A stretch of 64,000 bases of DNA from a virus (IMGVR_UViG_3300042987_002978:32001-96000), one strand, 5' to 3'. Counted from the first letter of the stretch, positions 339 to 29,331 are shown. The notes: generated by a model from the sequence alone, not told the origin. Numbers and translations: made by a program.

Positions 339-509
339 TTACAATTCCAACTCGCCACCGTCAGCAACGTTTTGCTGCTGTTTTTGGGATTGGGGCTGGA
401 CTCGCATTGCCTGGATTGTGGCTTTGAGTATGGCATTTTCACGGGTCAAATTGGCGATTTGCAAAGTTAGTTCACCAATTACGACATTGACATCTGGCTG
501 TTGGTTCAT
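339..509 (-). CDS. Small coiled-coil hypothetical protein (56 aa)
   Basis: Hand-translated MNQQPDVNVVIGELTLQIANLTRENAILKATIQAMR...; start overlaps the stop of the upstream gene (ATGA coupling). Confidence 0.7.
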   Translation of the reverse strand: MNQQPDVNVVIGELTLQIANLTRENAILKATIQAMRVQPQSQKQQQNVADGGELEL

Positions 510-1483
510 ACTCTAAGCATACACCTAGCCACGTGTCTTCTGACCGCTCTCCTGTCTTTCATATGATTAAAAATATCGATATATCTGAATTCCACATCAA
601 CCACGGATTTGATGTCATCCTCAAACGGATACCAATAATCCGGATGTATTGTAATACCAATAAACTTAGTCCCGCGTTTGCAAAACAAGCCGTTGTAAAA
701 TCCGGTTCCGAGTATTCCGGCGACGTGGGTAGCAGAAGCAAAAAGTCCTATTTGTTCGTCCATTGGCATGCCAGACGGCTGAATTATTGAATAGCCGTTT
801 TCAATAAAAACACTTTCTATTTCTTCTTCAACCCAGTCCTCGTTGTAACGCAGGCGCCTTTGTTCTTTTAACCAGTCGCTGTTAACGGGATGCTCAAACT
901 TCCATTCATCTAGTTGTTTGCTAACAACCCGACGAGATATAAAAATCTTTTCTTGCTTTTTCTCCGGGTATTTTGCCTTTTCCAAGAACATGTATCGCAA
1001 TTCATTGTTTAGGCCCGGAGTTTTCGTATAGTCCTTAAACTTGTCTTGATAGTCGGCAAGGATTTGCTGCCCATCAAACACGACGACAAGACGCTCTATT
1101 ATGTAGCAAGACTTGTTGAATGAATATACGTCTATGTTCCCAGCACAGTCTTTTTTTATGAAAGACTCTGTCCATTCGCATACGTCGCACATTTGTTGGT
1201 GTTTCGGGTATACATAAGCATAATTTTCAACCCATAGATATTTTGCCGAGTGGTCATATGTGTGTTTGTAGTGAAGAAAAGACGCAAAGTATTCTTTTAA
1301 GTAGTGAAAATAGTGCGGCGTACACGTGATTATTAAATTGGTTCCGTTGAAGCATTGAATATCATCGCTTTCGACGTTCCCAATCACAACATTTTCATAA
1401 ACCCTTATGTAATTGTTTTCGTCATCAATGATTTTGTATGAATCGTACCCAATAGGCCACTTGAACCTAGCGTGGTCATCCAT
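506..1483 (-). CDS. Glycosyltransferase family 61 (DUF563-like)
   Basis: HYFHYLKE, KIFISRR, GYSIIQPSGMPMDEQIGLFASATHVAGILGTGFYNGLFC motifs typical of GT61. Confidence 0.8.
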   Translation of the reverse strand: MDDHARFKWPIGYDSYKIIDDENNYIRVYENVVIGNVESDDIQCFNGTNLIITCTPHYFHYLKEYFASFLHYKHTYDHSAKYLWVENYAYVYPKHQQMCDVCEWTESFIKKDCAGNIDVYSFNKSCYIIERLVVVFDGQQILADYQDKFKDYTKTPGLNNELRYMFLEKAKYPEKKQEKIFISRRVVSKQLDEWKFEHPVNSDWLKEQRRLRYNEDWVEEEIESVFIENGYSIIQPSGMPMDEQIGLFASATHVAGILGTGFYNGLFCKRGTKFIGITIHPDYWYPFEDDIKSVVDVEFRYIDIFNHMKDRRAVRRHVARCMLRV

Positions 1484-2810
1484 ATTTATACCATCTGACT
1501 GCTGTTTGCTTGTTTCCTCTCAGTACGGAATTTATGCGATGGAAAAATGCATAAGTAGATGGGAAAACAATTATTTTTCCTGGCTCAGATGGTATTGATA
1601 TGCCGTGTTTTTCAAACACCATTTCGCCTCCTTCAAAATCATCATTTAACATCACGGTTACTGAAGTAATGCGGTTATAGTTTGGCGCATCATCAAAATG
1701 GTCGTGAAATTTACCTCCTTGCTCGTACCGCAAAAGAGTCCATTCGCTTGATATGAGTTCTGGGATATTGTAAGTCTCTCTATAATCACGCATTATGTCA
1801 TCCATGGCTTTATTTAGATTTACATAAAGCCGTTTTGCTGGGTCATGGGGGTGACAATCATTAACTTTTTCATTAAGTATGTATGAAAAAGAACTCCTAG
1901 CGTTAAGGTTTACGACAGGGTCTCCGTTTGGCCCAATAACGCGAGACCTTTCCCACATTTTGAATCCAACGTTTCGCGACAGACCATCAAGCACCATTGC
2001 GGACTCTTTTGAAATTGAATACTGAATTAGCCCAGGAGCAAGTGTTTGCTTGCTTTGAAATCCCATATCCATTATTTCTATATCGTCATCTACATAACGC
2101 CCGAATTGCGCGTTATATATGTTTAAAACGTTTGAATAGTCATGACACTTTCCGCAAATTGGTTGTTCAACCGGAGAATCTGGCAATGGGAAAAAACGGG
2201 CTCTGTTGAAGTATCTTACATCTCCGTCATTTCCATACTTGTGAATGTCTTGGGCATTGGTCTGTATCCAATGGTCAGGTTTGGTAAATTCAAGAAAAAG
2301 CACCGTTGTATATAAAGATGGGTCATCAGTTGGATACGGAGGCCTTGAATGCATGTTTTGCTGACCAGCAAATATGATTGCGCTATTTTCTATCTGTTTG
2401 TAACTCACTCGCTCAACACGTAAATCCCAATCAGCGTTGTTATCAATCGTTATGTCAATGGTTGATTGTGTGCCGTTCTGGTCGCAATGCTCCCAAAGCG
2501 AGGGAATGCAACCTTCGTGAATTTGATATCTGGAAACGAAAAAAAATGACTTTTGCAAAGTTGGGTCGTTGCATAATTCGCGTGCTTTTTGAGTGCAATA
2601 TGATTCAATATCGGCATCGAATGTAATTCCTGCTTCCCACCTTCCCATCATGGTGTGATATTTGTGGGGGCCAGATGGTCCCAGATTCAGTGCGGCAATG
2701 GCTGATTTGACACGCGAAAACATCTCATCGGGGAAAAAATTTGGCGACACATACGGTGAGCCAATAGTCGGCTCAGGAAGCGGAAATTCAATTACTCCGT
2801 TGCGCCGCAT
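1476..2810 (-). CDS. Tandem two-domain 2OG-Fe(II) oxygenase; C-terminal domain prolyl-4-hydroxylase-like
   Basis: C-terminal: LLRYEQGGKFHDHFDD...SVTVMLNDDFEGGEMVF...IVFPS..FFHRINSV. N-terminal: SRY..WEHCDQ...IIFAGQQNMHSRP (a second HxD...H set). Confidence 0.85.
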   Translation of the reverse strand: MRRNGVIEFPLPEPTIGSPYVSPNFFPDEMFSRVKSAIAALNLGPSGPHKYHTMMGRWEAGITFDADIESYCTQKARELCNDPTLQKSFFFVSRYQIHEGCIPSLWEHCDQNGTQSTIDITIDNNADWDLRVERVSYKQIENSAIIFAGQQNMHSRPPYPTDDPSLYTTVLFLEFTKPDHWIQTNAQDIHKYGNDGDVRYFNRARFFPLPDSPVEQPICGKCHDYSNVLNIYNAQFGRYVDDDIEIMDMGFQSKQTLAPGLIQYSISKESAMVLDGLSRNVGFKMWERSRVIGPNGDPVVNLNARSSFSYILNEKVNDCHPHDPAKRLYVNLNKAMDDIMRDYRETYNIPELISSEWTLLRYEQGGKFHDHFDDAPNYNRITSVTVMLNDDFEGGEMVFEKHGISIPSEPGKIIVFPSTYAFFHRINSVLRGNKQTAVRWYKYG

Positions 2811-2816
2811 GGCGGG

Positions 2817-3080
2817 TTACCATTTTTCTATCGGACAAGAAGCGTTAGAAAGACGCGTTTTTAATGGCATTATGCACCCACACTCGCGACACTGCTGAGT
2901 GGCTTTTATGAACCTGTCACATTCCCTACAAATTGCCAAACGCGATTGAATCACATCTTCAGTTACGCGCAATCCTGGATTAAGAATATGCCATGGCCTA
3001 GCCTTACCATTTGCGCTTTGCGACTCTTTATATTTATCCCAATTGCTTTTAGGCTGATTCTGTGAAGGTTCCATTTGCAT
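2817..3080 (-). CDS. Small Cys-cluster protein (DUF6171-like), copy 1
   Basis: RLAICRECDRF..QCRECGCIMPLKTRLSNASCPIEKW; paralog at 28390-28554. Confidence 0.75.
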   Translation of the reverse strand: MQMEPSQNQPKSNWDKYKESQSANGKARPWHILNPGLRVTEDVIQSRLAICRECDRFIKATQQCRECGCIMPLKTRLSNASCPIEKW

Positions 3081-3453
3081 ATGTCCATCCTGTGACCACT
3101 GCCGGAGTTGCTGAAGTTATTTCTGCCAATGTTGGGTTACTTGTAAGCGCTGCGGCAAGCAGTTCGTTTGATATGTGAAGTGTGTAAAGCGCAGAGCCAT
3201 TTACATGCAGTTCAATCACGGCATGACCTTCCGGAACACTGTGCGCCGAAGTTACGTCGACGATTGTCCCATCTCTAAACGCTTCCCACAAGGGCGGATA
3301 CGTCGGAAAAGTTGCGACAACCCGACCGTCTATAACCACCGCGACGGCGACACCCTTTGACGAGCCTTCTGGAAGGCCGCGACGCACAGAGGGAATCCAC
3401 TCCCATCCACAATCAGACCCCAAATACTCAAAACCAGATGTTTTCGTAATCAT
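3049..3453 (-). CDS. Hypothetical 'VIDG.V...LAAAL..NP...WTY' protein, copy 1 (putative tip chaperone)
   Basis: Shares motifs with 28026-28367; lies directly after the Cys-rich tail protein. Confidence 0.7.
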   Translation of the reverse strand: MITKTSGFEYLGSDCGWEWIPSVRRGLPEGSSKGVAVAVVIDGRVVATFPTYPPLWEAFRDGTIVDVTSAHSVPEGHAVIELHVNGSALYTLHISNELLAAALTSNPTLAEITSATPAVVTGWTYANGTFTESA

Positions 3454-3486
3454 ATAATCATCCTACCTTTTCGTTAATGGCTGTTC

Positions 3487-7475
<3,989 letters not shown>

Positions 7476-7476
<1 letters not shown>

Positions 7477-8348
7477 TAGTAATACGCCTTCCTATACGAG
7501 ATTGAAACAGTACCAGTTCCAGAGGTGGCGGAGAACGTTATGTCATTGGCCATCGGAAAAATTTCAAACCAAGACTGACGCGCACCGGCACGATACAACT
7601 TGGAGACGTCGTTGACCGCATTTTTCTCAAGCGTCAAGGCATCAGTATCGATAATTACCGATTGTCCAGTAGGAATCGTACCCGTGTATCCAAGTGACGA
7701 GAGACTGTCCGGATAGGTTTCGTTGGTTATCTTTGGGTTTTGAAGACTCGAAGTAGACGTGAAAGTTATAGTCATATACGTCGTGGGCGCAGTGCCAACG
7801 GCGGTGGCAGGCATCGGTACTGCAATATTCGAGCCAGAGAAGGTGGCAGAAGAAGACACCGACGTCAGCGAGAACCAACGCGGGTCAGGAAACTGGACAT
7901 CGACGCTGAACTCTGTGTAGTTAAGGTCTCGGTGGTCAGAAACCGTTATAGAACTAACGACTTCCCCATATGCGACCCTGGAAGAATACACGCCTGGGTT
8001 TGAAGGGTCAACCCTTACGTGCGTAACCGTAAGAAGTTGCGGCATTTCATTCAATAGATTGAAGACGGTGTCGTAGTTCTCGTTGAACTGTGAGCGGCGC
8101 CCTGCTTCTGTAGTTGCGACAGAACCGCTCACTGGGTCGTTGTCAGTTATCCAAATTGTCCAGGTTTCTGTCCTGGTATCGAGGCGCTTTTCGCGCCACT
8201 GTTGGCCATGAATAATTGCCGAGCCAACGTTTTCTCCTTTTTTCGCCGGTATTCCACGGTCAACCGCCGAAAGCATGTACCCGTGCGTGGCAAGTTCGAC
8301 TCCGTTGACGTCGTACCACTCAAGAACATTTGGAAGAACTGTCGCCAT
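7476..8348 (-). CDS. Distal tail protein (Dit)
   Basis: Immediately after TMP; [13 protein letters not shown]...[14 protein letters not shown]...ISYRKAYY Dit-like motifs. Confidence 0.8.
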
Positions 8349-8353
8349 TTACA

Positions 8354-13288: not shown

Positions 13289-13339
13289 GCAAATATTTTC
13301 TCATAAGCATGTCAAATTCGCAAACGGCTAAAAGCCGGT

Positions 13340-13555
13340 CTATTTGTTTACTGCCATTCCCATCTGGGCAGCAAAAGCCATCAATTGTTCTGCACCAGCC
13401 CGTTTCTTCATCCAGCCACGAGCCTCGAACATTATCGCTGTTTGTGCGGGGCTCAGTTCCCAGAATTCTTGGAGCGGGCGGCCCGTTTGACACCAGAGTC
13501 CGAGCCACTGGTGCCATTGTCCTGTGCTGGAGGCATTATCTGTTCCAGGTTTTCC
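13340..13555 (-). CDS. Tail assembly chaperone -1 frameshift extension (gpT-like segment)
   Basis: Overlapping -1 frame encodes WLGLWCQTGRPLQEFWELSPAQ ('EFW.L.P.Q' typical of gpT segments); no convincing start of its own. Confidence 0.75.
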   Translation of the reverse strand, partial: GKPGTDNASSTGQWHQWLGLWCQTGRPLQEFWELSPAQTAIMFEARGWMKKRAGAEQLMAFAAQMGMAVNK

Positions 13556-13986
13556 AGGAGTTTTTCTTTGTTTTCTTCGGCGAGCGCGAGCGCCTGCTTT
13601 AGCATCCGGCTCGCCGCGATAGGGTCCACGCCGTTGGCAATCGACCATGCCGTCCCCACAACGTTCGAATAGGTGATGATTTCTCCGTCAAGCATTGCTT
13701 CGCCGACATCGTGAAGCGGCCTACGCAAAACGAACGCCAATGTCTGGCGCATCGTGTTATAGGGCTTTTTCTCAAGTTGTTCTTGCCATGACTCAAGGCC
13801 ACCAAAATATTCCTCAATGTCAGAAATCGAATTGTTATTGAAACGAATGAAAAGGGTCTCTGTAACGACCTCTTCTTTCTCGTCGAGCACTCGTGCCCAA
13901 TCCGATTCACCCGCACCAGTTTTTTGCGTCTTGGCAAATTGGCACGGAATTCCCTTGTTCTTTAGCACTGTAGGTGTATAGTCCAT
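13453..13986 (-). CDS. Tail assembly chaperone (gpG-like)
   Basis: Between major tail protein and TMP; IRFNNNSISDIEEYFG motif; start MDYTP preceded by TATGCT -10 (leaderless). Confidence 0.8.
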   Translation of the reverse strand: MDYTPTVLKNKGIPCQFAKTQKTGAGESDWARVLDEKEEVVTETLFIRFNNNSISDIEEYFGGLESWQEQLEKKPYNTMRQTLAFVLRRPLHDVGEAMLDGEIITYSNVVGTAWSIANGVDPIAASRMLKQALALAEENKEKLLENLEQIMPPAQDNGTSGSDSGVKRAARSKNSGN

Positions 13987-15871: not shown

Positions 15872-15887
15872 GTTCTGTCAGCCAGAT

Positions 15888-15924
15888 TGTGCGCCCGGCG
15901 GAGTGTTTACGCACCGGGCGCACA
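15888..15924. promoter_or_regulatory. Hairpin between two small membrane genes of the lysis cassette
   Basis: TGTGCGCCCGG...CCGGGCGCACA perfect 11-bp inverted repeat. Confidence 0.5.
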
Positions 15925-15941
15925 CTCCGAGGTAGCGATAC

Positions 15942-16166
15942 CTACTTCTTGGCCTTCTCCTTTGTAGTTTCAGGTTTCTTCGCGAGGAACGATGCGACGG
16001 AAGGGTCGCCGACCTTCGTGCTTGCCAACGCAAGTGCGTAGGCAGCGAGCGGCATCAAGAGAGCAGTAAGTGTCGGGTCAACGTTGTACTTATCGCACAG
16101 ATAGACGACGACGCCGAGCGCTCCGCCTTTGACGACCTGGTCAAAACTCTGGCTCTTCTTGTCCAT
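15942..16166 (-). CDS. Small membrane protein (holin/antiholin candidate)
   Basis: MDKKSQ start with AAGGAG RBS; 2 hydrophobic segments; basic C-terminus. Confidence 0.6.
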   Translation of the reverse strand: MDKKSQSFDQVVKGGALGVVVYLCDKYNVDPTLTALLMPLAAYALALASTKVGDPSVASFLAKKPETTKEKAKK

Positions 16167-16240
16167 GGATTGCTCCTTTGTTGAGGGCCACATCGGCCGC
16201 TTACAGTCTCAACGAAGGATGCGTATAGTCGGACTATGGT

Positions 16241-18430: not shown

Positions 18431-18876
18431 AGCCTTATGTCGTGCGGTTCGGCGGTGTAATCGCCTTCGAACGATGCCCTTTTGTGCTCGACTATTGCCT
18501 TTACCAAGCGGGCATTTTCCTCCACGACATTGAGCGAATCCATGTTGCTCAAAATCGTCTTGACTTCCGACAGTCGCTTGTTGATGCCGTTGCGATAGCG
18601 CTGAGCCTTGCGCAACCACTCGTCGAACTTGAGTTTCTCTTCCGCGAAATCTTCAGGATTGGTGAGGCCAAGTTCCACGTCTCTGGCGAGCATGTCAATG
18701 CGCGTCTTGTGAAAGACCATCTGTGAATCAGAGTCTGACAAGGCTGTAATTAGCGCATGACACCACGCGAGTCTGTTCTCCTCGTCATGAAGCCAAGCGA
18801 TTTCTTCTGAAGTAGCGTCTCCCTTGCATTCGCGTTTTGCCATGTCAAGGACGTCTTTGTTGGGCAGCATTTTCAC
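18406..18876 (-). CDS. Hypothetical helical protein
   Basis: Good codon usage, RBS-like GAGG, coupled to the helicase. Confidence 0.7.
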   Translation of the reverse strand: MKMLPNKDVLDMAKRECKGDATSEEIAWLHDEENRLAWCHALITALSDSDSQMVFHKTRIDMLARDVELGLTNPEDFAEEKLKFDEWLRKAQRYRNGINKRLSEVKTILSNMDSLNVVEENARLVKAIVEHKRASFEGDYTAEPHDIRLWANLTDK

Positions 18877-18925
18877 CTCGTTGGGTAGTTGTGTTGTCCG
18901 TCTAGTCTACAGACGAACGGGGTGA

Positions 18926-21900
18926 TTACTCGGTATCCGGCTCTTTCATGTGCAGCCACATCGCCGCGGCAATGGCAAGAACCGTCGATATTCCGGCAAT
19001 TTTCTGAATAGGCCCGGACAAAGTTAAATAAACGACAAGTGAGCCCGCAATCGTGAAGCCCATGTTCATGAGCCCGTACGAGAACTTCTTGAAGAATGCT
19101 TTCCAGTCCATCACTTTCACCCCATTTACGTACTTAAAGATGCTGATGTTCTTTATCCAATCTAAACCATCGCCGGCAATCTCGCCTTGAGGCTCTTCCT
19201 CGTCATCCTCTCGTCTAGCCGCAGTGTCCTGTCGCGTGCTCGGCGCACTTGGGCCAGACGATGAAGGTGAGCCACCCGACATTCCGCCAGTCGCTGTCAT
19301 TGAAACGGCAGCAGCAGACGTGAGCAGTCCCGCTGCGATGACCGTGCGGCGCTCTCCGACGCTGATGTTCTGGTTCAACATCTTGTATCCGTCAAATGCG
19401 CCTTGGAACAAGTCCACGACATCCTCAAAGACTTCACGGACATCAGAGGGTGCTTCCTGGACCGCGTCCACGATTTGCTCGGCAACTTCTTCTGTAAGTT
19501 GCTCTGCCTCGACGCTCTCAAATACCTGTGCGGCCTGTTCCGTACTGACCGACTCAAGAACGGCAGGATTGGAGGCAAGAGTTGCTGCTACTTCTTGACT
19601 GACCCCAGCCTCGATTACAGCGGCCACCACGGCCACGATTTGTTCTTTCTGCTCTTCTGTCAAGGACTTGGGGTCTTCCACTTTGGTGATTGCCTCGATT
19701 ACCTCGGCCACCACCTCAGCAACCCTGTCTTCGGGGACGGAATCAATCAGGTCAGCCACGACTTCTGCCGTCTCTTCGGGGGAGGCGTCCTCCAGTTCGG
19801 AAACTGCCTCTTCTACGGCTTCAGAAACCTCAGACTCTGGCTCTGGTACCGTTGTTTCTGGTGAGACAGGTTCTGGGTCTTCTTGCTCTTGGGGCAACAC
19901 TGTTGTTTCAGTTGGCTGTTCTTCTTGCTCTGGCTCTACGGGGTCCTCTGGAAGAGTCGTATCTGGAGAAACATCAGCAGGGGTAGACGGTGTTGTTGTT
20001 TCGGGCTCTTCGACAGGCTCTGGTGTCGTGGTGGTCGTTGAATCGGTCTCTTCGGGAATGGTCGTCTCAACAGGCTCAGGCTGAGTGGTCGTCGTCGTCT
20101 CAGGCTCAGGCTCAGGCTCGGTCGTTGTTGTCGGAGGAACAGTCGTTATCGGGGGAGGCGCTTCCGTCGTCGTTGGAGCGGGGGCTTGGGTCGTAGTCGT
20201 CTGAGGAGCAGGGGCGACAGTCGTCGTAGTAGTGCTGGTCGTGGTAGTAGTCGTGGTACTGGTCGTCGTGGTCGTGGTGGTCGTCGAAGTAGTGGGGTCA
20301 ACCACCGTCACGTCGACAGTCGAGTACGGCCCGTATGTGCATGAGCCTTGGCCTTCGCCAACACATGCAGCGCTTCCGGCGCGAACCTTGAATCTGACAG
20401 GTCCGTATCCGGTGGTTCCCGGAAATTGATACGAACCGACCACATAGGCGGTATTCGTGGCGTATGTCCACACACCCCAGCCGCCAGACTCGACATTATT
20501 GTTCAAGTCGAACCAACTGACGTCGTACATGTGCGGTGAAAGATTGCCTGAGGCTGGGGCATCCCAATCAAGAGAAACGCTTCCGTCTTGGTTGGCCGAA
20601 CCTGTCAAGTTTTGAACTTGATTAAAATACGGGACAACCGTAGTCGTAGTTGTAGTCGTAGTGGTCGTAGTGGTTGTTGTGGTTGTTGTAAAAGTTGGAT
20701 TCGGGTCGACAACGCTCGCCACCGCAGTTGAATTGCTGTAGCGGAGCATGTCAACAAAGTAAATGTCTCCTTCTGCCGGAAGGGAGAATGACGAAATAAT
20801 CTTGCCGTTTCCGTTGAAGTAAATCTCTTTGTAATAGCCAGGTGCTTGGCAGGTCGAGCATCCTGCTGTCAATACCGAGTTTCCAATGGTAAATGTTGTG
20901 GTTGTTCCGTCTGAATATGTCACAGTTCCAGTTGCATCACCGTTCTTCGCCCCGACACGGAAGTAAAAACTTCTTGGAGTTGCCGATGATGGAAGTGTGA
21001 ACAGCGCTGACTGCGACGGGTTGCCGGCATACACGGCAACACCGGTCGTGCCGTAACCGTTGTTCATGTTTGCGTAATACCAACCTGATTGATTGCTTGA
21101 CGTGAGCGCACTTCCATTCACTGAAACCGTCACTCCAGTTGTCGGTCCTGGACCCTCAAAATCCTCCGTTGTTTCCGTTCCGGTGCCAGGAGAGGGAACA
21201 GTCGTGCTCGTAGTGGTCGTTGTCGTTGGCGCAGGCGCAGTCACGGTGATGTTCATTGATTCGCTTACCACGATGCTTGACGGCATGTTGTATTCAGCGA
21301 CATAACCTCCGACGCTTGACCAGGAATCGGGAAGGTCGTTCCAGCAGTTGCCGCCACTCCATTTGGTGACAGCGGCATCCTCGTTGCCTGAGTTGTTGGG
21401 CTCGCCACCGCACCACTTGGCGTAGTTCCCGCCTTGTGCAGACCCGTTGCTAACGCCGCGCCAGACAAGCGTTCCTTGTTCAGGAGAGCCGTCGTATGGG
21501 TCAAGAACCCAGTCACCTTCGACTGCCCTGTCGGAAAGGGCTATCCAGATGTTGTACGCACCTTGGATTTTGCTGAGGACGAACTCGTGTTCCGCGTCGG
21601 ATGTGATGGTCACCAAATAGCCATTTACTCCGCTGATTGTTCTTGTCCGCGCCGCTGTCCTTGCATTCAAGTAACTGATGTTCCCTTGGACAAATTCATA
21701 CAAATGGCCGTTAAAAAATGCAGTGTTGTTGACTTTCTCAGATACCTCAATAGTCAATGTTGCGGAACCAGCCGTCGCGCCAGAATCCAGAGTCATCGCA
21801 TCAAGCGCCGTATTGATGTTCGTTTGATTGCCAGTGAAATTGATTTGCGAAGTGTTGGTCCAAGACGTGTACCCAGACTCAAGCGTCAATCCAGTCGTCG

Positions 21901-22159
21901 TCGGCAAGTTGACCTTCGCAGCAGTTGAGCCAGAAACAGTGATGCTCACCAAAAGATTGGCGGATTCACTAAAGCCAGAAACTTGAAAATCATCACTGAG
22001 GGCAAGCCCGTTTTGGCCGCTGACAGTTGTTATGTCAGAAGGTGCCGCAACGGACTCTCCCGCAGCGTTCGCTGTTTTCAGAGGTGTGCCAAAACTGAAA
22101 AGCATGCACATGAAACACGTCAACCAAATCAGTGCTTCGAACGGTCTGCGCCTCAACAT
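18926..22159 (-). CDS. Large membrane-anchored surface protein: signal peptide, Ig-like, C-type lectin, FN3, Thr/Pro mucin-like stalk, acidic helical region, 2 C-terminal TM
   Basis: NGHLYEFV...GYLVTITS..EHEFV...IWIALSD...WCGGEPNN...WNDLP (CLECT); VSLDWDAP...FKVRAG (FN3); poly-Thr tracts. Confidence 0.85.
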   Translation of the reverse strand: MLRRRPFEALIWLTCFMCMLFSFGTPLKTANAAGESVAAPSDITTVSGQNGLALSDDFQVSGFSESANLLVSITVSGSTAAKVNLPTTTGLTLESGYTSWTNTSQINFTGNQTNINTALDAMTLDSGATAGSATLTIEVSEKVNNTAFFNGHLYEFVQGNISYLNARTAARTRTISGVNGYLVTITSDAEHEFVLSKIQGAYNIWIALSDRAVEGDWVLDPYDGSPEQGTLVWRGVSNGSAQGGNYAKWCGGEPNNSGNEDAAVTKWSGGNCWNDLPDSWSSVGGYVAEYNMPSSIVVSESMNITVTAPAPTTTTTTSTTVPSPGTGTETTEDFEGPGPTTGVTVSVNGSALTSSNQSGWYYANMNNGYGTTGVAVYAGNPSQSALFTLPSSATPRSFYFRVGAKNGDATGTVTYSDGTTTTFTIGNSVLTAGCSTCQAPGYYKEIYFNGNGKIISSFSLPAEGDIYFVDMLRYSNSTAVASVVDPNPTFTTTTTTTTTTTTTTTTTVVPYFNQVQNLTGSANQDGSVSLDWDAPASGNLSPHMYDVSWFDLNNNVESGGWGVWTYATNTAYVVGSYQFPGTTGYGPVRFKVRAGSAACVGEGQGSCTYGPYSTVDVTVVDPTTSTTTTTTTTSTTTTTTTSTTTTTVAPAPQTTTTQAPAPTTTEAPPPITTVPPTTTTEPEPEPETTTTTQPEPVETTIPEETDSTTTTTPEPVEEPETTTPSTPADVSPDTTLPEDPVEPEQEEQPTETTVLPQEQEDPEPVSPETTVPEPESEVSEAVEEAVSELEDASPEETAEVVADLIDSVPEDRVAEVVAEVIEAITKVEDPKSLTEEQKEQIVAVVAAVIEAGVSQEVAATLASNPAVLESVSTEQAAQVFESVEAEQLTEEVAEQIVDAVQEAPSDVREVFEDVVDLFQGAFDGYKMLNQNISVGERRTVIAAGLLTSAAAVSMTATGGMSGGSPSSSGPSAPSTRQDTAARREDDEEEPQGEIAGDGLDWIKNISIFKYVNGVKVMDWKAFFKKFSYGLMNMGFTIAGSLVVYLTLSGPIQKIAGISTVLAIAAAMWLHMKEPDTE

Positions 22160-22207
22160 AGCAGGAAGAATAAATCTTCCGGCTAGATAGTGTTTATAAT
22201 TGCGCGA

Positions 22208-23320
22208 TTATAGTTTCGCTATCTTGTTAAAGACTTCTATCCACTGCGACGCTGTTTGTTTGATGGAAAACTGTTTGGACACTATCGTTCTTGCTCTTCT
22301 TGACTCTTCTTCTCGTTTAGCAAGATTCAGGAACGAATCAAGGTGATTTTCCCATTCTTGTTGTGATGAGGCGACTCGGCCCACCCCAGCATTGGCAAGG
22401 TACTCGTACTCCGGAAGATTTGATGCGACAAAAGGAATTCCTGCCGCCGCATACTCAAGACCTTTTATGAATGACTTGGCTCGATTGAACGGTATGTCGT
22501 TTAGCGGGACGATTCCGATATCAAAATTTGCGTAGACATTGGGCAAGTCGTAGAGCGGCACCATGGGACTGACGGAGCACAAATCGGGGTTTATCTTGAG
22601 CCTCAGATAGGCAGGACCAGCCCAAGGGATGTGTCCTGCATGGTGGAAACGGGCATCGCGACTGGTCAGATATTCGTTGAAGAACGGCGATATCTGCTCA
22701 AGGTCCATGGACCGCCACGGCGTGGCACCGAGCCACCCAATTATCGGCTTGCGCTTCACCGTCCTGAATCGAGTCCATCTTTCTATGTCAATGGCGTTGC
22801 GGACCATGAATATGGGCTTCTTGGGGTATTTCTTTTTGTAGTACTGCTCTATGAATGGCGTAGAGCAGATTAGGGCGTCGGCGTTCTTGATTATCTCCGC
22901 GTAAATCTCCCTGTTGCTTTCTTTGGATTTTGCAGGGTCGGTCGACCTATAGGCGTGGTTTGTTTCGTGCAGTTCTTCGTGAAGGTCGTCGATATCTACC
23001 ACGATTTTTTGACCGATGGCTTTTGCTTTCGGCATCGCCTCAAGGGTCTGTGCCGACATGATTACCTTGAGAACGATTATTCCGTGCCTGTGCGAAAACG
23101 TGTCGTTCAGCCGCTTGATGACGAACTTACCGTTTGGCTTTATGGACAAGAACCCGAAACTTGCGTGGATTCCGGCAAGATTCAACTGCTGTGCCGGAAG
23201 TATGCACCTGTACCACGTGCAGCCGTTCGGTACGTATTGGTCTTCGTCTCTTCCCCAATCGAGCGAAGCAAACCCGACGCTGAACGTAAGTCCTTCGTCT
23301 TTGAAAACGTGGCGATTCAT
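22208..23320 (-). CDS. Glycosyltransferase (GT-B, GT4-like), paralog 2
   Basis: GCTWYRC, VVDIDD, IGWLGA, DIGIVPL..FNRAKSFIKGLEYAAAGIPFVAS. Confidence 0.9.
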   Translation of the reverse strand: MNRHVFKDEGLTFSVGFASLDWGRDEDQYVPNGCTWYRCILPAQQLNLAGIHASFGFLSIKPNGKFVIKRLNDTFSHRHGIIVLKVIMSAQTLEAMPKAKAIGQKIVVDIDDLHEELHETNHAYRSTDPAKSKESNREIYAEIIKNADALICSTPFIEQYYKKKYPKKPIFMVRNAIDIERWTRFRTVKRKPIIGWLGATPWRSMDLEQISPFFNEYLTSRDARFHHAGHIPWAGPAYLRLKINPDLCSVSPMVPLYDLPNVYANFDIGIVPLNDIPFNRAKSFIKGLEYAAAGIPFVASNLPEYEYLANAGVGRVASSQQEWENHLDSFLNLAKREEESRRARTIVSKQFSIKQTASQWIEVFNKIAKL

Positions 23321-24423
23321 GTTATGTCCATGATGCTGGTGTACACGTGTTCCCATTGCGATGCGAAAGAATCGATTGAGAAGTGCTCGGTTATTATTTC
23401 TTTGTTCAACTCCGACTCGTCGACGCGCATGTTGTAATCCATCAGTTCGTTGAAATGCGCAATCCACTCTTCGTCCGTTTTCGCTATTCTTCCCACTCCG
23501 GCGTCCGCCAGGTATTGATATTCTGGAGTATGGGACGCGACGAACGGGATTCCTGCGGCGGCATATTCAAGGCCTTTCAAATATGACTTTGCGTGGTTGA
23601 ATTCGACGTTGTTCAAAGGGACTATGCCGATATCGATGTTCTTGTAGAGTTCCGGAAGTTGCGTCATAGGAAGCATCGGCGTGGTGCTTACTTGCTTGTC
23701 GTCGATTCCAAGAAGCGAGGCGGCGCTGTCCGCCGCGGCTATGTGGCCGGAGTGGTGAAAAGTCGTGTTCTGCGATATCAGGTATTCCTTGAAGAAGGAC
23801 GACAACTGCTCTAAGTCTCTTGAACGCCACGGAGTCGCGCCAACCCAACCGATTACAGGTACGGAACGTCTGGTGTTGCGCTTGGGCCACCGACCGATGT
23901 CGATGGAGTTTCTCACCATGAACACAGGCTTTGTAGGGTGCTTTTTTGAATAAAAGTCGTACAGGAACGGCGTCGAGCAAATCAGGGCATCGGCCATTTC
24001 AATGACTTGAAAATAGATATCGCGATTGTTGTCCTTGTGAAGTTCCGGGTCGGTCTGCTGACGAGCCCTGTTCGTCTCGGGAAGATTGTCGAACCAGTCG
24101 TCTATATCAACGACCACACGGACCTTGTTCGCTTTTGCTATTTGTACCGCTATGAGGTTTGCGGCGTGCATCGGCAGTTTGAACACCAGCATTTTGTGAC
24201 CCGAATAGATACCTTCCGTCTTGTACAGAGGTGCACGTACGCGAACGCCCACCTTGCCGTCGGCGACCGATATGGTTCCGATTTGGCAGGCATGATTACG
24301 TCGAATCATTGCCATTGCCGGAAGAATGCAGCGATACCAAGTGCAGCCGTTGGGAAAAGACAGATTCTGGACTTGAGACCAGTCCTGAGAGATGAACCCG
24401 ATGCTGAGCGGCGTGGTTGGCAC
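23317..24423 (-). CDS. Glycosyltransferase (GT-B, GT4-like), paralog 1
   Basis: Same motifs as its neighbour (FNHAKSYLKGLEYAAAGIPFVAS); tandem duplicate; GTG start. Confidence 0.9.
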   Translation of the reverse strand: MPTTPLSIGFISQDWSQVQNLSFPNGCTWYRCILPAMAMIRRNHACQIGTISVADGKVGVRVRAPLYKTEGIYSGHKMLVFKLPMHAANLIAVQIAKANKVRVVVDIDDWFDNLPETNRARQQTDPELHKDNNRDIYFQVIEMADALICSTPFLYDFYSKKHPTKPVFMVRNSIDIGRWPKRNTRRSVPVIGWVGATPWRSRDLEQLSSFFKEYLISQNTTFHHSGHIAAADSAASLLGIDDKQVSTTPMLPMTQLPELYKNIDIGIVPLNNVEFNHAKSYLKGLEYAAAGIPFVASHTPEYQYLADAGVGRIAKTDEEWIAHFNELMDYNMRVDESELNKEIITEHFSIDSFASQWEHVYTSIMDIT

Positions 24424-24472
24424 GCCTATACGTTAGCGAAAATACTTGCTCAGCACCCGCAGATTATGTGTT

Positions 24473-25060
24473 TTATAGGGGCACCCAGTGGTCAAGCGAA
24501 TTCAAAGATTTTTGTATGCTGCCGTATGAATGTATGTCAAACGCAATCGTTATTCGTGGTTCATCTTTTAGGGGCTTGGATGTTTTGTGGAAATTATCGT
24601 TTGACTTTGCAAACACCAGCAACCCGTCCTTTGAGTCAACTTTTATGCGTTGACCATCATCGAACTTGTACTGAGTATTTCCTGCACTTGACTTGACACA
24701 AAAAAATCCGTGGTACGAATGCTTGCTGCCATAGTGTCTGTGCCAATCAAGTTTTTGTTTGTCTCTGTAAACATTCACCCAGCCTTGAATGTAGTATTTT
24801 TTGGACACATCAATGTCTGCCGAATAAAAGGTATCTCTTATCGCACAGTAGAGAGAATTAAGTTCTACGGACGGATAGCAAAAAACGTTGTAAAAGTCTG
24901 CCACCCGCGTGCCGAACGGGGTGTCTTCATCAATTTTGTAGTTTTGTGGTTTGTCTGAAAGCGTGCTGGCAACCAACTCTTCTATCTCCAGACATTGTTC
25001 AGAAAGTTCTCGCAGGTCAATTTCTTCCAGCAGAACAGAAACTATTTTTCTTCTTGCCAT
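24473..25060 (-). CDS. 2OG-Fe(II) oxygenase superfamily protein (HxH type)
   Basis: QGWVNVY..LDWHRH...GFFCV...DGLLVF...FHKT...RITIAFDI. Confidence 0.8.
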   Translation of the reverse strand: MARRKIVSVLLEEIDLRELSEQCLEIEELVASTLSDKPQNYKIDEDTPFGTRVADFYNVFCYPSVELNSLYCAIRDTFYSADIDVSKKYYIQGWVNVYRDKQKLDWHRHYGSKHSYHGFFCVKSSAGNTQYKFDDGQRIKVDSKDGLLVFAKSNDNFHKTSKPLKDEPRITIAFDIHSYGSIQKSLNSLDHWVPL

Positions 25061-25070
25061 ATGCTCAGTC

Positions 25071-25592
25071 TCAGAAATAGTTAAAGTTGATAACAATTCT
25101 GTATTTCGTGTTCGTGTGCGTTGTCCCAGCGTGGCTCATTGTTGCCGGGAATACAACGACTCTATTGGCAACACTTTCTACTTTTGTGCCATCCTCGAAC
25201 AATGTATATCCGTCATTCGTGTTTAAGTAGTAAATGGCAGTCTTCATTGCTGACATGACCTCAGGTTTTCGCAGCATCGTAGGATAAGCAATGTCCGTGT
25301 GCATGTCTGATACTTCTATGGTCGGTGTTGATGGTCTGAAATTTGCTTTTGCCCTGACAAGTACGTCCGACTTCAAATTGCGCAGAAGTGGGGCCAGCAC
25401 AGAGTAGTAGGGGCTCGTCTGACTGTTGTCCCTGTAGAAAATGTGGGTGAATTGAAAATCGTTCAGCGAGCGACTGGGTTTGTCTTTGTAGACTACGCTG
25501 TTGTTGTAATGCCAATTAAATTTCACGTCGGTCAGCGTCGTAAATATAGCCGAGTGTTCTTCCTTTTTGAGGAATTCGTCAATGATTTCCAC
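25071..25592 (-). CDS. 2OG-Fe(II) oxygenase superfamily protein
   Basis: IIDEFL, RAKAN, MHTD, TAIYYLNTNDGYTLF, SVANRVVVF..SHAG...RIVINFNYF; GTG start after TATACT. Confidence 0.85.
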   Translation of the reverse strand: MEIIDEFLKKEEHSAIFTTLTDVKFNWHYNNSVVYKDKPSRSLNDFQFTHIFYRDNSQTSPYYSVLAPLLRNLKSDVLVRAKANFRPSTPTIEVSDMHTDIAYPTMLRKPEVMSAMKTAIYYLNTNDGYTLFEDGTKVESVANRVVVFPATMSHAGTTHTNTKYRIVINFNYF

Positions 25593-25627
25593 GCTGCCAA
25601 GTATAGTAGAATGATACGGAGAAAAAT

Positions 25628-26302
25628 ATGTTGATTCAGCCGTACGCAATCTACGACAATTTCTTGGATGACCCAAGCGCAGTAATCAGGTCTCTTCGCT
25701 CGCAAAGGTATTACGTGCAGGGACTACCGGATACGGGACAAGTGTCGAACAATGACATACCTCTGGAAATCAACTACGGAGACGAAAGCGTCACCGGAGA
25801 CCCGAGGTTTGGTTCGCCCTACTGGAAGGGCTACAGGACCAGGGACCTGCAAGAAATAGACATGGACAGTTACAACATAATCATGAGCAAGTTGCTTGAG
25901 CACATATTCGGCTCGTTCACATTGGCACAGATTGAGTTTGACGCCGAAACACATTTCCACCTCATGACCAAAGACTTTGTTTTTACTGATACGTGGTTCC
26001 ACTCCGACGCCAGCAAATTCATTGCCGGCGTTTTGTACCTGGCAGAAGACCCTGGTCCGAACAGTGGGACGGCGCTGATGATAAACGGTGAAAAAGTCTC
26101 AATAGAAAACAAGTTCAACAGGTTGATTGTCTATAACGCTGGCTTGACGCACAGCGCAGAAGGCTGTTTCGGGGACTCGCTTGAGAACTGCAGGGCTACG
26201 TTTGTATTTTTTATCCGGAATATCTTGCTGTTCAACGACATATTGGAACAGCAGGAACCGACATCAATGGGCAATCAGCACAATTACATAGGCGGATACT
26301 GA
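25628..26302 (+). CDS. 2OG-Fe(II) oxygenase (DUF6445-like)
   Basis: IYDNFLDDP, WKGYRT, WFHSD..AGVLYL..GT, NKFNRLIVY...HSA...R..FVFF. Confidence 0.8.
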   Translation: MLIQPYAIYDNFLDDPSAVIRSLRSQRYYVQGLPDTGQVSNNDIPLEINYGDESVTGDPRFGSPYWKGYRTRDLQEIDMDSYNIIMSKLLEHIFGSFTLAQIEFDAETHFHLMTKDFVFTDTWFHSDASKFIAGVLYLAEDPGPNSGTALMINGEKVSIENKFNRLIVYNAGLTHSAEGCFGDSLENCRATFVFFIRNILLFNDILEQQEPTSMGNQHNYIGGY

Positions 26303-26309
26303 CAGGCCA

Positions 26310-28016
26310 ATGAGAATCGTAGGAATAAGTACCGCGCACGATAGTTCTGTTGCCTCATATTGCGACGGCGAAATTGAGTTCTTCATGAAAGAAGAGCGGA
26401 TTACCAAGCGCAAGAGGGACAAGAACCCATTCGCAGCCATGGTGGAAACGGCCAAATTCTTGGGCAACAAGAAAATCGACGCAGTCGCGGTATCTGCACC
26501 GCACAACACTGATGTCGACAGTTACTTGTTCGCGATAATCGATGCCGCGACAAAGATTTTCAAGACAAACAACATATACAAACTCTTCAACAGCCATCAC
26601 TTGTGCCATGCTTCGTTGGCTTTTTACAACAGTGGATTTGACAATGCTGTCGTGGTAATCGTGGACAGAAACGGCTCGAACAATCCGAATTCAAATATGC
26701 TGCTTTTCGAGTCCGAAACGGTTTTCACCGCGGAATACCCAAGTTCATTCAAGGAAATAAAGAAGAACTACTGGCTTGCGCAGCGCGGGCAAAGTTCTGA
26801 TGCGTTCCTGTTGGAACTCGTTCCCAGAGAGAAAACAAAGAGACCAGGATGTGAAATATCGTACGAGAGTTTGTACGGCATCACCAAGGTCTACGAAACT
26901 GCGACCATTCTCATAGGCGAAGGAATTCTGGAAAACGGCAAGACGATGGGACTTGCTGCATACGGGAACGAAAACCAAGATTTTCCCAATCTGTTTCTTG
27001 ACAACGGCTGTCCCAACGACTCCCTGTTCTCCTATGCGATGAGCAGTCGTGACAATACGCTTGCTGCGATATATAAAGAATACGCAGGCAAGATGACCAA
27101 AACGGTCGACAAAAACGACTATCAGTTTTATGCGGACTATGCGTATCAAGTTCAAAAGCAAACACAAGAACAGGTGGCAAAACTCATTGAGACGGCGGTA
27201 CAGCGAACAGGCATAAAGAACGTTTGCGTCTCTGGTGGTTACGGTTTGAACGTTGTTGCCAACGGCTACTACATATCGAAGTTCCCAGACGTCAATTTCT
27301 TCTTTGAGCCGCTCGCCGATGACACCGGGAACAGCATTGGCGCGGCAATGCTTGTTTATAGAGAATTGTCAAAAGACAAAACCATACGACCGTTGAAGTC
27401 GACTTTCTTCAACGGCCACGAGCCGCATATTTCAGCAGAAGAATTTGACAGGCACCCGATTTCATATGGCAAGGCAACCGTCAACGATGTTGCAAGATTG
27501 TTGGCGGACAACGCAAAACTTGCCATGTTTGCCGGCAAGGCGGAGGGCGGTCCGAGAGCGCTCGGGAACAGGTCGATTTTGTTTTACCCAAATCTTGCCG
27601 ACTCAAAAGACATCGTAAATCGAATTAAGAAACGAGAGTGGTACAGGCCGTTTGCGGCATGTGTCTTGAAAGAAGATGCCTGGGAATACTTTGACATGAT
27701 GTCGCTGACCGAAAGCCCGTACATGACCGTTTCTTTCGACTGCCGCGCCATGACAAAAGAATTGTTTCCGGGGATTGTCCATGTTGACAATTCGTGCAGA
27801 GTGCAGACGGTAGGCGAGGAGAACAAGAACCTACATTCCTTGTTGACGGCAATAAAAGAACTGACTGGTCACGGGTTGTTGTTGAATACAAGTTTCAATT
27901 TGGCCGGCAGCCCGCTGGTTGAAACTATTGACGATGCGATAAAGGTCATGATGGAATCAGAACTTGAATACATCTGGATTCCAGAACACCAGACGCTGCT
28001 AGGCAAGCAGCGATAG
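26310..28016 (+). CDS. Carbamoyltransferase (NodU/CmcH family)
   Basis: GIS.AHDSS, EERITKRK, HHLCHA..AFY.SGF, GKTMGLAAYG, SGGYGLNVVAN, GPRALGNRS, KKREWYRPFA, HVDNSCRVQT, LNTSFNLAG. Confidence 0.95.
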   Translation: MRIVGISTAHDSSVASYCDGEIEFFMKEERITKRKRDKNPFAAMVETAKFLGNKKIDAVAVSAPHNTDVDSYLFAIIDAATKIFKTNNIYKLFNSHHLCHASLAFYNSGFDNAVVVIVDRNGSNNPNSNMLLFESETVFTAEYPSSFKEIKKNYWLAQRGQSSDAFLLELVPREKTKRPGCEISYESLYGITKVYETATILIGEGILENGKTMGLAAYGNENQDFPNLFLDNGCPNDSLFSYAMSSRDNTLAAIYKEYAGKMTKTVDKNDYQFYADYAYQVQKQTQEQVAKLIETAVQRTGIKNVCVSGGYGLNVVANGYYISKFPDVNFFFEPLADDTGNSIGAAMLVYRELSKDKTIRPLKSTFFNGHEPHISAEEFDRHPISYGKATVNDVARLLADNAKLAMFAGKAEGGPRALGNRSILFYPNLADSKDIVNRIKKREWYRPFAACVLKEDAWEYFDMMSLTESPYMTVSFDCRAMTKELFPGIVHVDNSCRVQTVGEENKNLHSLLTAIKELTGHGLLLNTSFNLAGSPLVETIDDAIKVMMESELEYIWIPEHQTLLGKQR

Positions 28017-28025
28017 CCGCAAAGG

Positions 28026-28367
28026 CTATTGATTGTTGGCCGTAAAATCTCCGGTCGTTTCGTCGTAAGTCCAATTTGGCTGGACGACGTTTTTCTGGGT
28101 CGCCTGCATGTGAACGACCTTCGGGTTGGCAGCAAGGGCAGCGGCGAGTTCTGCCGCGAGTTCTTTGTGCGCAACATGGACAGCACCGACAACCCCGTCG
28201 ACGACAAGGGCAAAAAATTCATAGTCTTCTGGGTGCTCGGCAGAAGTACGCACGGCAGGAACCTCGGAATCCACGGCATCCTGGTGATAACGAATCAACT
28301 CTTCAAGAGTCAAATTCTCGATTATCGCTCGCAGTTCTTGTTCTGTGCTCGAATCTAATGCTGCCAT
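28026..28367 (-). CDS. Hypothetical 'VVDG.V...LAAAL..NP...WTY' protein, copy 2
   Basis: FALVVDGVV...ELAAALAANPKVV...PNWTYDETTGDF, matching 3049-3453. Confidence 0.7.
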   Translation of the reverse strand: MAALDSSTEQELRAIIENLTLEELIRYHQDAVDSEVPAVRTSAEHPEDYEFFALVVDGVVGAVHVAHKELAAELAAALAANPKVVHMQATQKNVVQPNWTYDETTGDFTANNQ

Positions 28368-28389
28368 GTTGACCCCTTAATAAGGTACA

Positions 28390-28554
28390 TCACCATTTGC
28401 CGATTGGACATGAGGCCAATTTCAGGCGCGTTTTTACGCGCATGAAACACTTGCACTCTTTGCATTGGCCGGTCGGCTTGAAAAAGCGAGGACAGGCCTT
28501 GCATATGTCAAGCCGCTCTTCATGAAAAGGTCGAGATTGCGTTGACCCTGTCAT
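28390..28554 (-). CDS. Small Cys-cluster protein (DUF6171-like), copy 2 (54 aa)
   Basis: Not in the ORF track; hand-translated MTGSTQSRPFHEERLDICKACPRFFKPTGQCKECKCFMRVKTRLKLASCPIGKW; ATGA overlap with the upstream stop. Confidence 0.85.
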   Translation of the reverse strand: MTGSTQSRPFHEERLDICKACPRFFKPTGQCKECKCFMRVKTRLKLASCPIGKW

Positions 28555-28865
28555 TGTCCCTCTTCGGTGCCTTCAAGTGCATCAAGATATGCAGGCCATC
28601 TGTGGTTTTCAAAAATCCAAAGGCTTTGAGTCGCATTGATGTATGAATAAATTTTTGTCGGAGGGGGATTGATGCCAGAGTCAGCGGCATCTAAAAATGC
28701 CTCGACCGCAGACCTCAATTCGCTTTTTACGTGCTCTTCAAGTGCTTCAATGAGGCTTTCATCCTTCTCGCACAATTCAACAAGTGCGTCATCGTCAGAA
28801 AGAACGATGAACTCGCCATCGTGAATGATTACCGGACCGTTTGTTGTCGAACGAATTTCAAACAT
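28551..28865 (-). CDS. Hypothetical acidic protein
   Basis: AGGA RBS and upstream TATAAT; coupled to the Cys-cluster gene. Confidence 0.7.
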   Translation of the reverse strand: MFEIRSTTNGPVIIHDGEFIVLSDDDALVELCEKDESLIEALEEHVKSELRSAVEAFLDAADSGINPPPTKIYSYINATQSLWIFENHRWPAYLDALEGTEEGQ

Positions 28866-28914
28866 TTTTCCTGCCTTTAATAAGTTATTGCATTATACCA
28901 AAATGGATGGGTTT

Positions 28915-29331
28915 TCAGCCGTTTTCTGTCGCGGCGTACGAGGGTGGATAGTTGCAAGAAGTGGATACCCTTGTGACAACGCTCGTGTTTGTTGGGCATG
29001 AATATGTCGTCGTATAGGTTGGGGAAGCCCCATAACCCCATTCTGGTCTGTGCAGGTTGGCGTTGTCACACGGTCCGCACCAGTTGGTGCAGTTACATCC
29101 ACAACCTTGACCTGCTCCGATGCACCATCCACCGCAATTTGCGCCGCCAGATGGGCAGTAACTGCCGCTTTGCCATGTCCACGCTGTTGCAGAATAATTC
29201 GCCGGGTAGTTGCAAGTCGTTCCGCTCAAAGAAACGATTGCCGTGTTGGTATTGCAGGTATAGAACACGCTCCTGCGGGACAGGCCGAATCTCCTTGCCG
29301 AGCCGCCGCCCAACTTGTTTACGAATGGCAT
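28915..29331 (-). CDS. Cys-rich putative adhesin/tip protein with 'MP..G..S.R.FG' leader
   Basis: 12 Cys in 138 aa; leader shared with Gly-rich proteins 30667 and 31443; internal duplicated C.TNT..V....CNYP..Y.AT. Confidence 0.7.
   Translation of the reverse strand: MPFVNKLGGGSARRFGLSRRSVFYTCNTNTAIVSLSGTTCNYPANYSATAWTWQSGSYCPSGGANCGGWCIGAGQGCGCNCTNWCGPCDNANLHRPEWGYGASPTYTTTYSCPTNTSVVTRVSTSCNYPPSYAATENG

Follow-up and report, generated by a model that had tools for sequence, protein, structure and literature searches.

Receptor-binding tips decide which hosts a phage infects. We examined two gene clusters in a 64,000-nucleotide stretch of viral DNA (IMGVR_UViG_3300042987_002978:32001-96000; hereafter the window), which comprises bases 32001-96000 of a 104,851-bp IMG/VR viral contig. 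In each cluster the gene for a cysteine (Cys)-rich putative virion protein is followed by genes for two small proteins, one a member of the DUF6171 family (PF19668) and the other, which we call the partner, a member of an unnamed family, and genes for candidate tailoring enzymes lie alongside. Among described systems, the tail-fibre chaperones (T4 gp38 and gp57A, Tfa of lambda, Mu and P2, and the intramolecular chaperone domains) offer one parallel to the partner, which is likewise encoded directly downstream of a receptor-binding protein and accompanies one type of tip domain. However, the partner had no sequence or fold similarity to a known chaperone family in our searches, and it is tied to Cys knots and to DUF6171.

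A second parallel is provided by the gene clusters of ribosomally synthesized and post-translationally modified peptides (RiPPs), in which a small Cys-rich peptide module is also encoded before small accessory proteins and variable tailoring enzymes. As with RiPP recognition elements, an accessory domain of the phage cassettes occurs either free or fused to differing enzymes, and some cassettes include radical S-adenosylmethionine (SAM)/SPASM enzymes. Unlike a RiPP precursor, the phage 'peptide' forms the C-terminus of a large structural protein, with no sign of its being released. Moreover, neither the partner nor DUF6171 gave a Pfam match to a PqqD-like recognition element at E<=0.1 or a fold match above Z 2.9. 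In the Skp1 hydroxyproline pathway of Dictyostelium and Toxoplasma, the prolyl 4-hydroxylase (P4H) PhyA acts first and the GT60 glycosyltransferase Gnt1 second. The likeness lies in a P4H-like gene beside a glycosyltransferase gene and in the Gnt1 family (PF11397), a member of which is encoded immediately after DUF6171 in 10 of 44 related cassettes. The P4H of chlorovirus PBCV-1 acts on proline-rich repeats, and such repeats are the likely target here. The Skp1 pathway differs in that the substrate here would be a phage fibre appendage, the hydroxylation is a prediction, and two extra small proteins are integral to the phage cassette. The window also carries GT61 and GT4-type enzymes rather than GT60, as PF11397 gave no match in Pfam scans of open reading frames (ORFs) in 506-8348 and 16241-41098. 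Finally, phage-encoded glycosyltransferases of mycobacteriophages decorate capsid and tail proteins, and we likewise propose that the phage's own glycosyltransferases decorate its virion proteins. Here, however, the candidate cassette is attached to the fibre tip and includes oxygenases and two dedicated small proteins. The literature we searched contained no phage hydroxyproline-glycosylation system for fibres and did not mention DUF6171.

We propose, with a probability of roughly 0.55, that both clusters represent a modular cassette through which phage fibre tips are matured and decorated. The window belongs to a siphovirus-type genome in which Dit (PF22768) and a 1644-amino acid (aa) tape measure protein are followed by a 1329-aa tip protein; the portal protein is nearest to actinobacteriophage portals, with ~38% identity across half its length. 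Locus 1 begins at the tip gene and reads, in transcriptional order on the minus strand:

3487-7476, minus strand: tail-tip/fibre protein, 1329 aa, encoded after Dit and the tape measure, with weak Sipho_Gp37 and fn3 matches
3049-3453, minus strand: partner-1 (P0003), 134 aa, of the unnamed family with a ~65-aa core; no Pfam or PHROG match
2817-3080, minus strand: DUF6171-1 (P0001), 87 aa, PF19668, with six invariant Cys in the pattern CxxC...CxxCxC...CP..KW
1476-2810, minus strand: 444-aa protein with a C-terminal P4H-like 2-oxoglutarate (2OG)-Fe(II) oxygenase domain (PF13640)
506-1483, minus strand: GT61-family glycosyltransferase, 325 aa (PF04577)

The P0003 and P0001 genes overlap by 32 nt. 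All 16 Cys residues of the tip protein fall within its last 227 residues, where they form four small modules. This C-terminal part (3487-4200) is a stalk-and-knot appendage in which (PVT)n and (TPPV)n repeats separate the Cys modules, and a homologue in locus L006 is 74% identical to the tip protein.

Both locus 1 enzymes exceeded their Pfam cut-offs of 27 bits (PF13640, E 1.4e-11 and 45.6 bits; PF04577, E 2.1e-13 and 51.1 bits). The original prediction had described the 444-aa protein as a tandem P4H; this was not confirmed, as only the C-terminal domain matched Pfam and the N-terminal half had a weak PHROG match only. Its nearest solved relatives are bacterial prolyl 4-hydroxylases, with a weak match (E 0.0016) to the Bacillus anthracis enzyme (3itq/5hv0). 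In that weak alignment a His-Phe-Asp sequence is placed against the His-Tyr-Asp of the B. anthracis P4H, and we take it, from knowledge of the family, to be the iron-binding H-x-D motif. Homologues of the 444-aa oxygenase immediately follow DUF6171 in four other loci (L006, L097, L109 and L116). The G+C content drops within the locus, from 50.6% in the partner gene to 42% in the adjoining DUF6171-1 gene and 40-42% across DUF6171-1, the oxygenase and GT61, as compared with a window average of 52%. This drop suggests that DUF6171 and the enzyme block (506-3080) were acquired as a unit. Because low G+C is common to DUF6171 and the enzymes, unlike the adjoining partner, DUF6171 appears to have arrived with the enzymes.

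Locus 2 lies at the other end of the region and contains the same two small families in a different order, followed by a convergent enzyme block:

29351-30214, minus strand: fibre protein, 287 aa, preceding P0005; paralogue of the N-terminal part of a 1364-aa Mtd_N fibre protein (37004-41098)
28915-29331, minus strand: P0005, putative tip subunit, 138 aa with 12 Cys; homologues head the same cassette elsewhere
28551-28865, minus strand: acidic protein, 104 aa, the third conserved member of this type of cassette; no Pfam family
28390-28554, minus strand: DUF6171-2 (P0002), 54 aa, PF19668
28026-28367, minus strand: partner-2 (P0004), 113 aa, sharing the partner-family core
22208-28016, both strands: enzyme block, defined by Pfam scan, consisting of the following six entries
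26310-28016, plus strand: carbamoyltransferase, a solid match (E 3.5e-53)
25628-26302, plus strand: weak 2OG-like ORF, 224 aa, below the Pfam cut-off
25071-25676, minus strand: weak 2OG-like ORF, below the Pfam cut-off
24473-25096, minus strand: weak 2OG-like ORF, below the Pfam cut-off
23317-24423, minus strand: GT1/GT4-type transferase
22208-23467, minus strand: GT1/GT4-type transferase

All of the minus-strand ORFs that had been predicted were present, including the short one at 28390-28554, whose start is overlapped by 4 nt by the stop of the acidic-protein gene. The enzymes attributed to the two loci were confirmed in part. GT61, the locus 1 2OG oxygenase and the carbamoyltransferase were solid and one of the two GT1/GT4-type genes was above the cut-off (28.7 versus 27 bits), whereas the other glycosyltransferase and the three locus 2 oxygenases (E 7.7e-5, 0.0055 and 0.0032) were below it. 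Cassettes of the locus 2 type, in which a P0005-like protein is encoded with a partner and DUF6171, were found in L086, L087 and L091, each headed by a P0005 homologue (154-156 aa, 14-16 Cys), and phmmer linked the 287-aa fibre protein to fibres of these three loci and to the product of 37004-41098. Homologues of the acidic protein adjoin DUF6171 in L086 and in L091, which has two copies; this protein gave 14 matches in 11 sources, with the window and its own excerpts counted. A homologue of the 419-aa glycosyltransferase of locus 2 (E 1.4e-103) is encoded directly after DUF6171 and the acidic protein in L091, and because it shares their operon there, at least this glycosyltransferase can be linked to the cassette. 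We also observed that the N-terminal motif of P0005, 'MP...GGSAR.FG', is shared with two Gly-rich adhesins of the window (30667-31440 and 31443-32303; 'MP...G.SS.R.FG.LR'), which suggests that it may be a common docking peptide for alternative tip subunits.

The two Cys-rich proteins are unrelated, as had been stated: BLASTP detected no relationship between the tip C-terminus and P0005 (E 0.45). The small proteins that follow them do belong to the same two families. P0001 is clearly paralogous to P0002 (E 3e-18), and the 104,851-bp contig has no further DUF6171 copy. Both exceeded the PF19668 gathering score of 27 bits (35.2 and 35.0, respectively) and matched phrog_13558 (E 5.5e-17 and 1.1e-15). 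The six Cys (CxxC...CxxCxC...CP) and a C-terminal K-W are invariant columns in an alignment of 68 sequences, and all are kept in both window copies. P0003 and P0004 were only weakly similar by BLASTP (E 0.046); their homology is backed by hhalign of close-relative profiles (92.8%, E 4e-7) and by reciprocal jackhmmer searches (E 4e-15 in either direction). The partners had originally been aligned through a shared VxDG motif. The homology stands, but the pairing of VIDG with VVDG does not, since the VVDG strand of P0004 pairs with the second beta unit of P0003 rather than with its VIDG.

The partner core of ~65 aa consists of a hydrophobic strand, D/E-G, a strand, a helix with AA.SS.PK, and GW.YD..F, and P0004 aligns over all of it. 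A profile search of 1.8 billion representatives returned 32 proteins at E<=0.001, almost all of 71-161 aa and sharing the core, and none of the 13 close relatives of P0003 has a recorded Pfam domain. We scanned 31 members and obtained zero Pfam or PHROG matches, chaperone families such as Caudo_TAP included. From these comparisons we conclude that P0003 and P0004 belong to one real family that is not covered by Pfam or PHROG models. The AlphaFold2 models of P0004 and P0002 were confident, with a mean predicted local distance difference test score of 88.8 and 87.8, respectively. Neither gave anything usable in Foldseek against the PDB or in a wide VIA-align search (best Z 2.9 for the partner and 2.6 for DUF6171), and in Pfam DUF6171 had no thioredoxin, Erv or rubredoxin family match at E<=0.1. 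A complex prediction for partner residues 40-113 with DUF6171 scored 0.01 against a mark of 0.32, a value that counts neither for nor against binding. As a separate matter, the Gly-rich adhesins of the window have small companions of their own, encoded on the minus strand at 30307-30657 and 33281-33649. These have a 'YA.lD.nN.VtnVI' strand pair at the N-terminus, a Trp-rich C-terminus and no Pfam family; the possibility that the partner is a distant relative of these was rejected by hhalign (0.4%).

A scan of IMG/VR identified at least 583 DUF6171 loci, of which the 80 most similar to P0001 were examined, with genes assigned by greedy ORF calls. A jackhmmer search started from either window partner recovered the other one and ~65 further ORFs, almost all of them co-directional with a DUF6171 gene and 0-70 bp away from it. 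Among 52 DUF6171 representatives chosen at <80% identity, a partner was adjacent (within 100 bp) in 28, on the upstream side in 24 and downstream, as in locus 2, in 4; it was within 1 kb in 3, farther away in 4 and absent from the locus in 17. Conversely, 10 of 17 partner representatives had an adjacent DUF6171 gene and 4 had one within 1 kb, none had one farther away, and 3 had none in the locus. The partner was found directly downstream of a receptor-binding protein gene in related loci and in both window loci (within two genes in the case of locus 2). The twice-repeated module of the window is not due to chance, since dozens of unrelated viral contigs show this adjacency as well. This recurrence bears on the idea that the small genes are unrelated morons or regulators, such as a Zn-ribbon nucleic-acid binder, hitch-hiking in a fibre region that recombines readily. 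The mosaicism of fibre regions, the recent exchange shown by the G+C break of locus 1 and the presence of DUF6171 in non-structural regions too would all fit such hitch-hiking; however, order and strand are kept across dozens of divergent contigs, and the domain is fused to enzymes, to the partner and to the substrate. We regard hitch-hiking as highly improbable.

A central element of the proposed cassette is a Cys-rich substrate encoded just upstream of the pair. The gene preceding the pair encoded at least 6 Cys in its last 150 aa in 30 of 36 non-identical cases, compared with 3% of 486 other genes from the same loci (Mann-Whitney p 3e-22, uncorrected for relatedness). The expectation that these families lie directly downstream of Cys-rich structural genes elsewhere was borne out in the IMG/VR loci examined. 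The upstream protein usually ends in a long repeat stalk that leads into a terminal knot, with 4-10 Cys packed into 25-45 residues. Among the stalk repeats are (PFFPPFF)n, (TPPV)n, (PT)n, (PVS)n and (TTTTAAP)n. These proteins also bear fn3, PASTA and Ig-type domains, which are typical of fibres and decoration proteins. The five Gly_rich_2 adhesins of the window were correctly described as Cys-poor and without such a pair; each has 1-2 Cys. Long (PFFPPFF)n-type Pro/Phe repeats stand right before the Cys knot in many fibre ends (L014-L031, L038, L046, L056, L065 and L078), and we know of no described counterpart for this type of repeat.

Tailoring enzymes predominated on the other side of the pair. 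Among 44 non-redundant genes directly after DUF6171, the most frequent family was 2OG-FeII_Oxy_3, which is P4H-like (17/44), followed by PF11397, the family of the Skp1 hydroxyproline GlcNAc transferase (10/44), by GT2 (3/44), and by GT61, radical SAM/SPASM and DUF6065 (2/44 each). The two radical SAM/SPASM cases were L053 and L115. Taken with the upstream Cys enrichment, this tally and the radical SAM/SPASM genes uphold the view that the pair is a dedicated, conserved companion of Cys-rich tips tied to tailoring enzymes. Because the pair is tied to such enzymes, it is fair to speak of RiPP-like logic applied to a virion protein. In addition, ORFs with the radical SAM Cys motif occur one or two genes past DUF6171, behind Cys-knot fibres, at L053:6227-7228, L115:2120-3151 and L027:7176-8150; the first two are the Pfam matches, and the assignment in L027 rests on the motif and a wider tally.

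Fusion proteins provided a further view of DUF6171. The sequences joined to this domain were GT60 (at either end), a 2OG oxygenase, DUF6065, a sulfotransferase-like domain, the partner (with both orders represented) and Cys-rich adhesins. Fusions with GT60 made up at least 9 clusters and that with a 2OG oxygenase one (P0052), while those with Cys-rich adhesins were P0056, an in-frame fusion with 16 member sequences, and P0057. The ESM Atlas also contained a viral cluster of GT60 proteins with a model that aligns to DUF6171. DUF6171 occurs by itself, on many different enzymes and at times on the substrate, which is how a docking or recognition module behaves. An alternative is that DUF6171 works like a rubredoxin, carrying iron or electrons so that the neighbouring 2OG-Fe(II) oxygenases stay reduced or iron-loaded, in place of the ascorbate of eukaryotic P4Hs; this would suit a small protein with paired CxxC motifs whose commonest next gene is a 2OG oxygenase and which is once fused to one. 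However, GT60 fusions are commoner, fusions to the partner and to adhesins occur too, a glycosyltransferase directly follows in 10/44 cassettes, and no rubredoxin match was obtained in Pfam at E<=0.1. We consider a carrier of this kind quite unlikely.

The fusions and the position of the genes also bear on a structural reading, in which the partner and possibly DUF6171 would not be transient helpers but would form part of the virion, for instance as a distal cap or adaptor seated on the Cys knot. Both genes are inside the structural operon, the adhesin-DUF6171 fusion represented by P0056 is in frame, and phages such as T2 and S16 encode the adhesin itself (gp38) in a small gene after the fibre gene. 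Fusions of DUF6171 to cytoplasmic enzymes speak against a purely structural role, and we assign little probability to this reading.

We found that the two small proteins do not always travel together, and the claim that they act as a single kit was not sustained. In a podovirus-like group a Cys-knot fibre is followed directly by the partner, with neither DUF6171 nor enzymes, and a Gly-rich linker replaces the long Pro stalk. Conversely, DUF6171 goes with the enzymes and also occurs without the partner, as in cultured T4-like cyanophages and Stenotrophomonas phages. Co-occurrence was compared in 62 loci with full flanks. The partner went with the Cys knot (40 of 47 loci versus 6 of 15; p 0.0013), and enzymes accompanied Pro-rich repeats in 21 of 22 loci as compared with 17 of the 40 loci lacking such repeats (p 2.6e-5). 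Hence the partner tracks the Cys knot and DUF6171 tracks the enzymes. The fusions, the podovirus-like group, the co-occurrence and the base composition together suggest that the two proteins have different jobs, and the proline-rich stalks are the likeliest target of the P4H-like enzymes.

These findings can be compared with the proposal of a joint kit: the partner and DUF6171 would relay thiols, form disulfides or load metal so that the Cys-rich tip folds in the reducing cytoplasm, and the enzymes would carry out a separate decoration. Two CxxC motifs are included among the six invariant Cys of DUF6171, the association with Cys-rich C-termini is strong, and fusions join DUF6171 to Cys-rich adhesins (P0056 and P0057) and to the partner, as such a kit would predict. 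Yet DUF6171 is also fused to glycosyltransferases, oxygenases and DUF6065, which need no thiol chemistry; it lies far from any Cys-rich gene in several phages; and some Cys-knot fibres have a partner without having DUF6171. Moreover, the Pfam tallies of flanking genes included no flavin sulfhydryl oxidase or thioredoxin-fold family. A kit of this type is on balance unlikely. Thiol relay or metal loading by DUF6171 is the less favoured reading, as it fits the enzyme fusions and the solitary copies of cultured phages less well.

In the maturation and decoration cassette that we favour, the substrate would be a distal protein of the virion with a small Cys-rich knot at its end, usually on a stalk of proline-rich repeats. 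The partner, with its predicted beta-hairpin, helix and GW.YD..F motif, would serve the Cys knot in particular, probably as an assembly or folding factor specific to fibres, or else as a cap, and is encoded at the usual position of tail-fibre chaperones. DUF6171, a domain of ~50 aa whose six Cys presumably bind metal, would be an adaptor that docks interchangeable tailoring enzymes onto the substrate-partner complex, a role that would resemble that of the recognition element in RiPP pathways. The enzymes would be P4H-like 2OG oxygenases, glycosyltransferases of the GT60, GT61, GT2 or GT4 type and, in some phages, radical SAM/SPASM enzymes. In the case of locus 1, prolines of the (PVT)n/(TPPV)n stalks would probably be hydroxylated first, and O-glycosylation would come next. 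Our data establish the order of the genes, the families to which they belong, their co-occurrence and the fusions, from which binding, metal content, hydroxylation, glycosylation and the identity of the modified residues are inferred.

Several observations weigh against this cassette. Neither the partner nor the DUF6171 model resembled a known chaperone or recognition domain in the fold searches, and for 17 of the 52 DUF6171 representatives no partner could be detected within the locus. A Pro-rich stalk is missing from locus 2, where the enzymes score weakly in Pfam and some are encoded on the opposite strand. Cultured phages place DUF6171 among small early-type genes (Moby) or beside the tape measure (P-SS2), and tblastn with P0003, P0027 and P0028 as queries did not find the partner in cultured phages. 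Finally, the locus frequencies are biased toward relatives of P0001, since the 80 loci were those most like P0001 out of at least 583, and the statistics take no account of shared ancestry.

What is new here is the definition of the partner family, its link to the Cys knot, the fusion evidence for DUF6171 as an adaptor and the division of roles between the two helpers. Only tentatively would we extend the proposal to its broadest form, in which DUF6171 is a new recognition or docking domain and the partner a new tip-specific chaperone, and in which RiPP-like tips are widespread, with a swappable Cys-knot warhead on a polyproline stalk, plug-in hydroxylases, glycosyltransferases and radical SAM enzymes, and a host range tuned after translation. 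If the cassette functions as proposed in a large group of environmental phages, host-range prediction from sequence only would miss a layer, and DUF6171 and the unnamed partner family would gain a testable role. Phage 2OG oxygenase and P4H genes, including those of cyanophages, are usually counted as auxiliary metabolic genes (e.g. PMC9301287) and would need to be re-read as virion-maturation genes. Small, stable Cys-knot binders on rigid stalks, together with their maturation kit, could also have practical use.

Megablast of both loci against phage records gave no match. Cultured phages provide an experimental handle on DUF6171. In Synechococcus phage S-SRM01 (L121, MW015081.1 41680-44626) DUF6171 directly follows an 'adhesin tip' gene with an 11-Cys insert, and it is this arrangement that offers the handle. 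The gene that directly precedes the adhesin-tip gene is annotated as a flavin-dependent halogenase, which may represent another tailoring chemistry. In cyanophage P-SS2 an unannotated DUF6171 ORF (NC_013021.1 53858-54043; L001:6001-6186) is flanked by the 'tail protein' gene gp076 and the tape measure gene gp077, and the same record has a second DUF6171 match elsewhere. We also noted that many DUF6171 proteins among P0062-P0127 are ~185 aa long and have an N-terminal beta-rich domain of ~110 aa; P0062 was scanned and had no Pfam family in that part. A linker motif, 'RPWDL', is conserved before the Cys domain of these longer proteins and is present in P0001 as well.

Two further genes of the window lie between the loci. 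A SNF2/HARP-type helicase of 792 aa (16241-18619, minus strand) is encoded between the tail genes and the fibre/enzyme block, in an otherwise structural region. A protein of 1077 aa (18926-22159, minus strand) has a weak C-type lectin match, a long acidic C-terminal part rich in Glu, Val and Ala, and hydrophobic segments at its extreme end.

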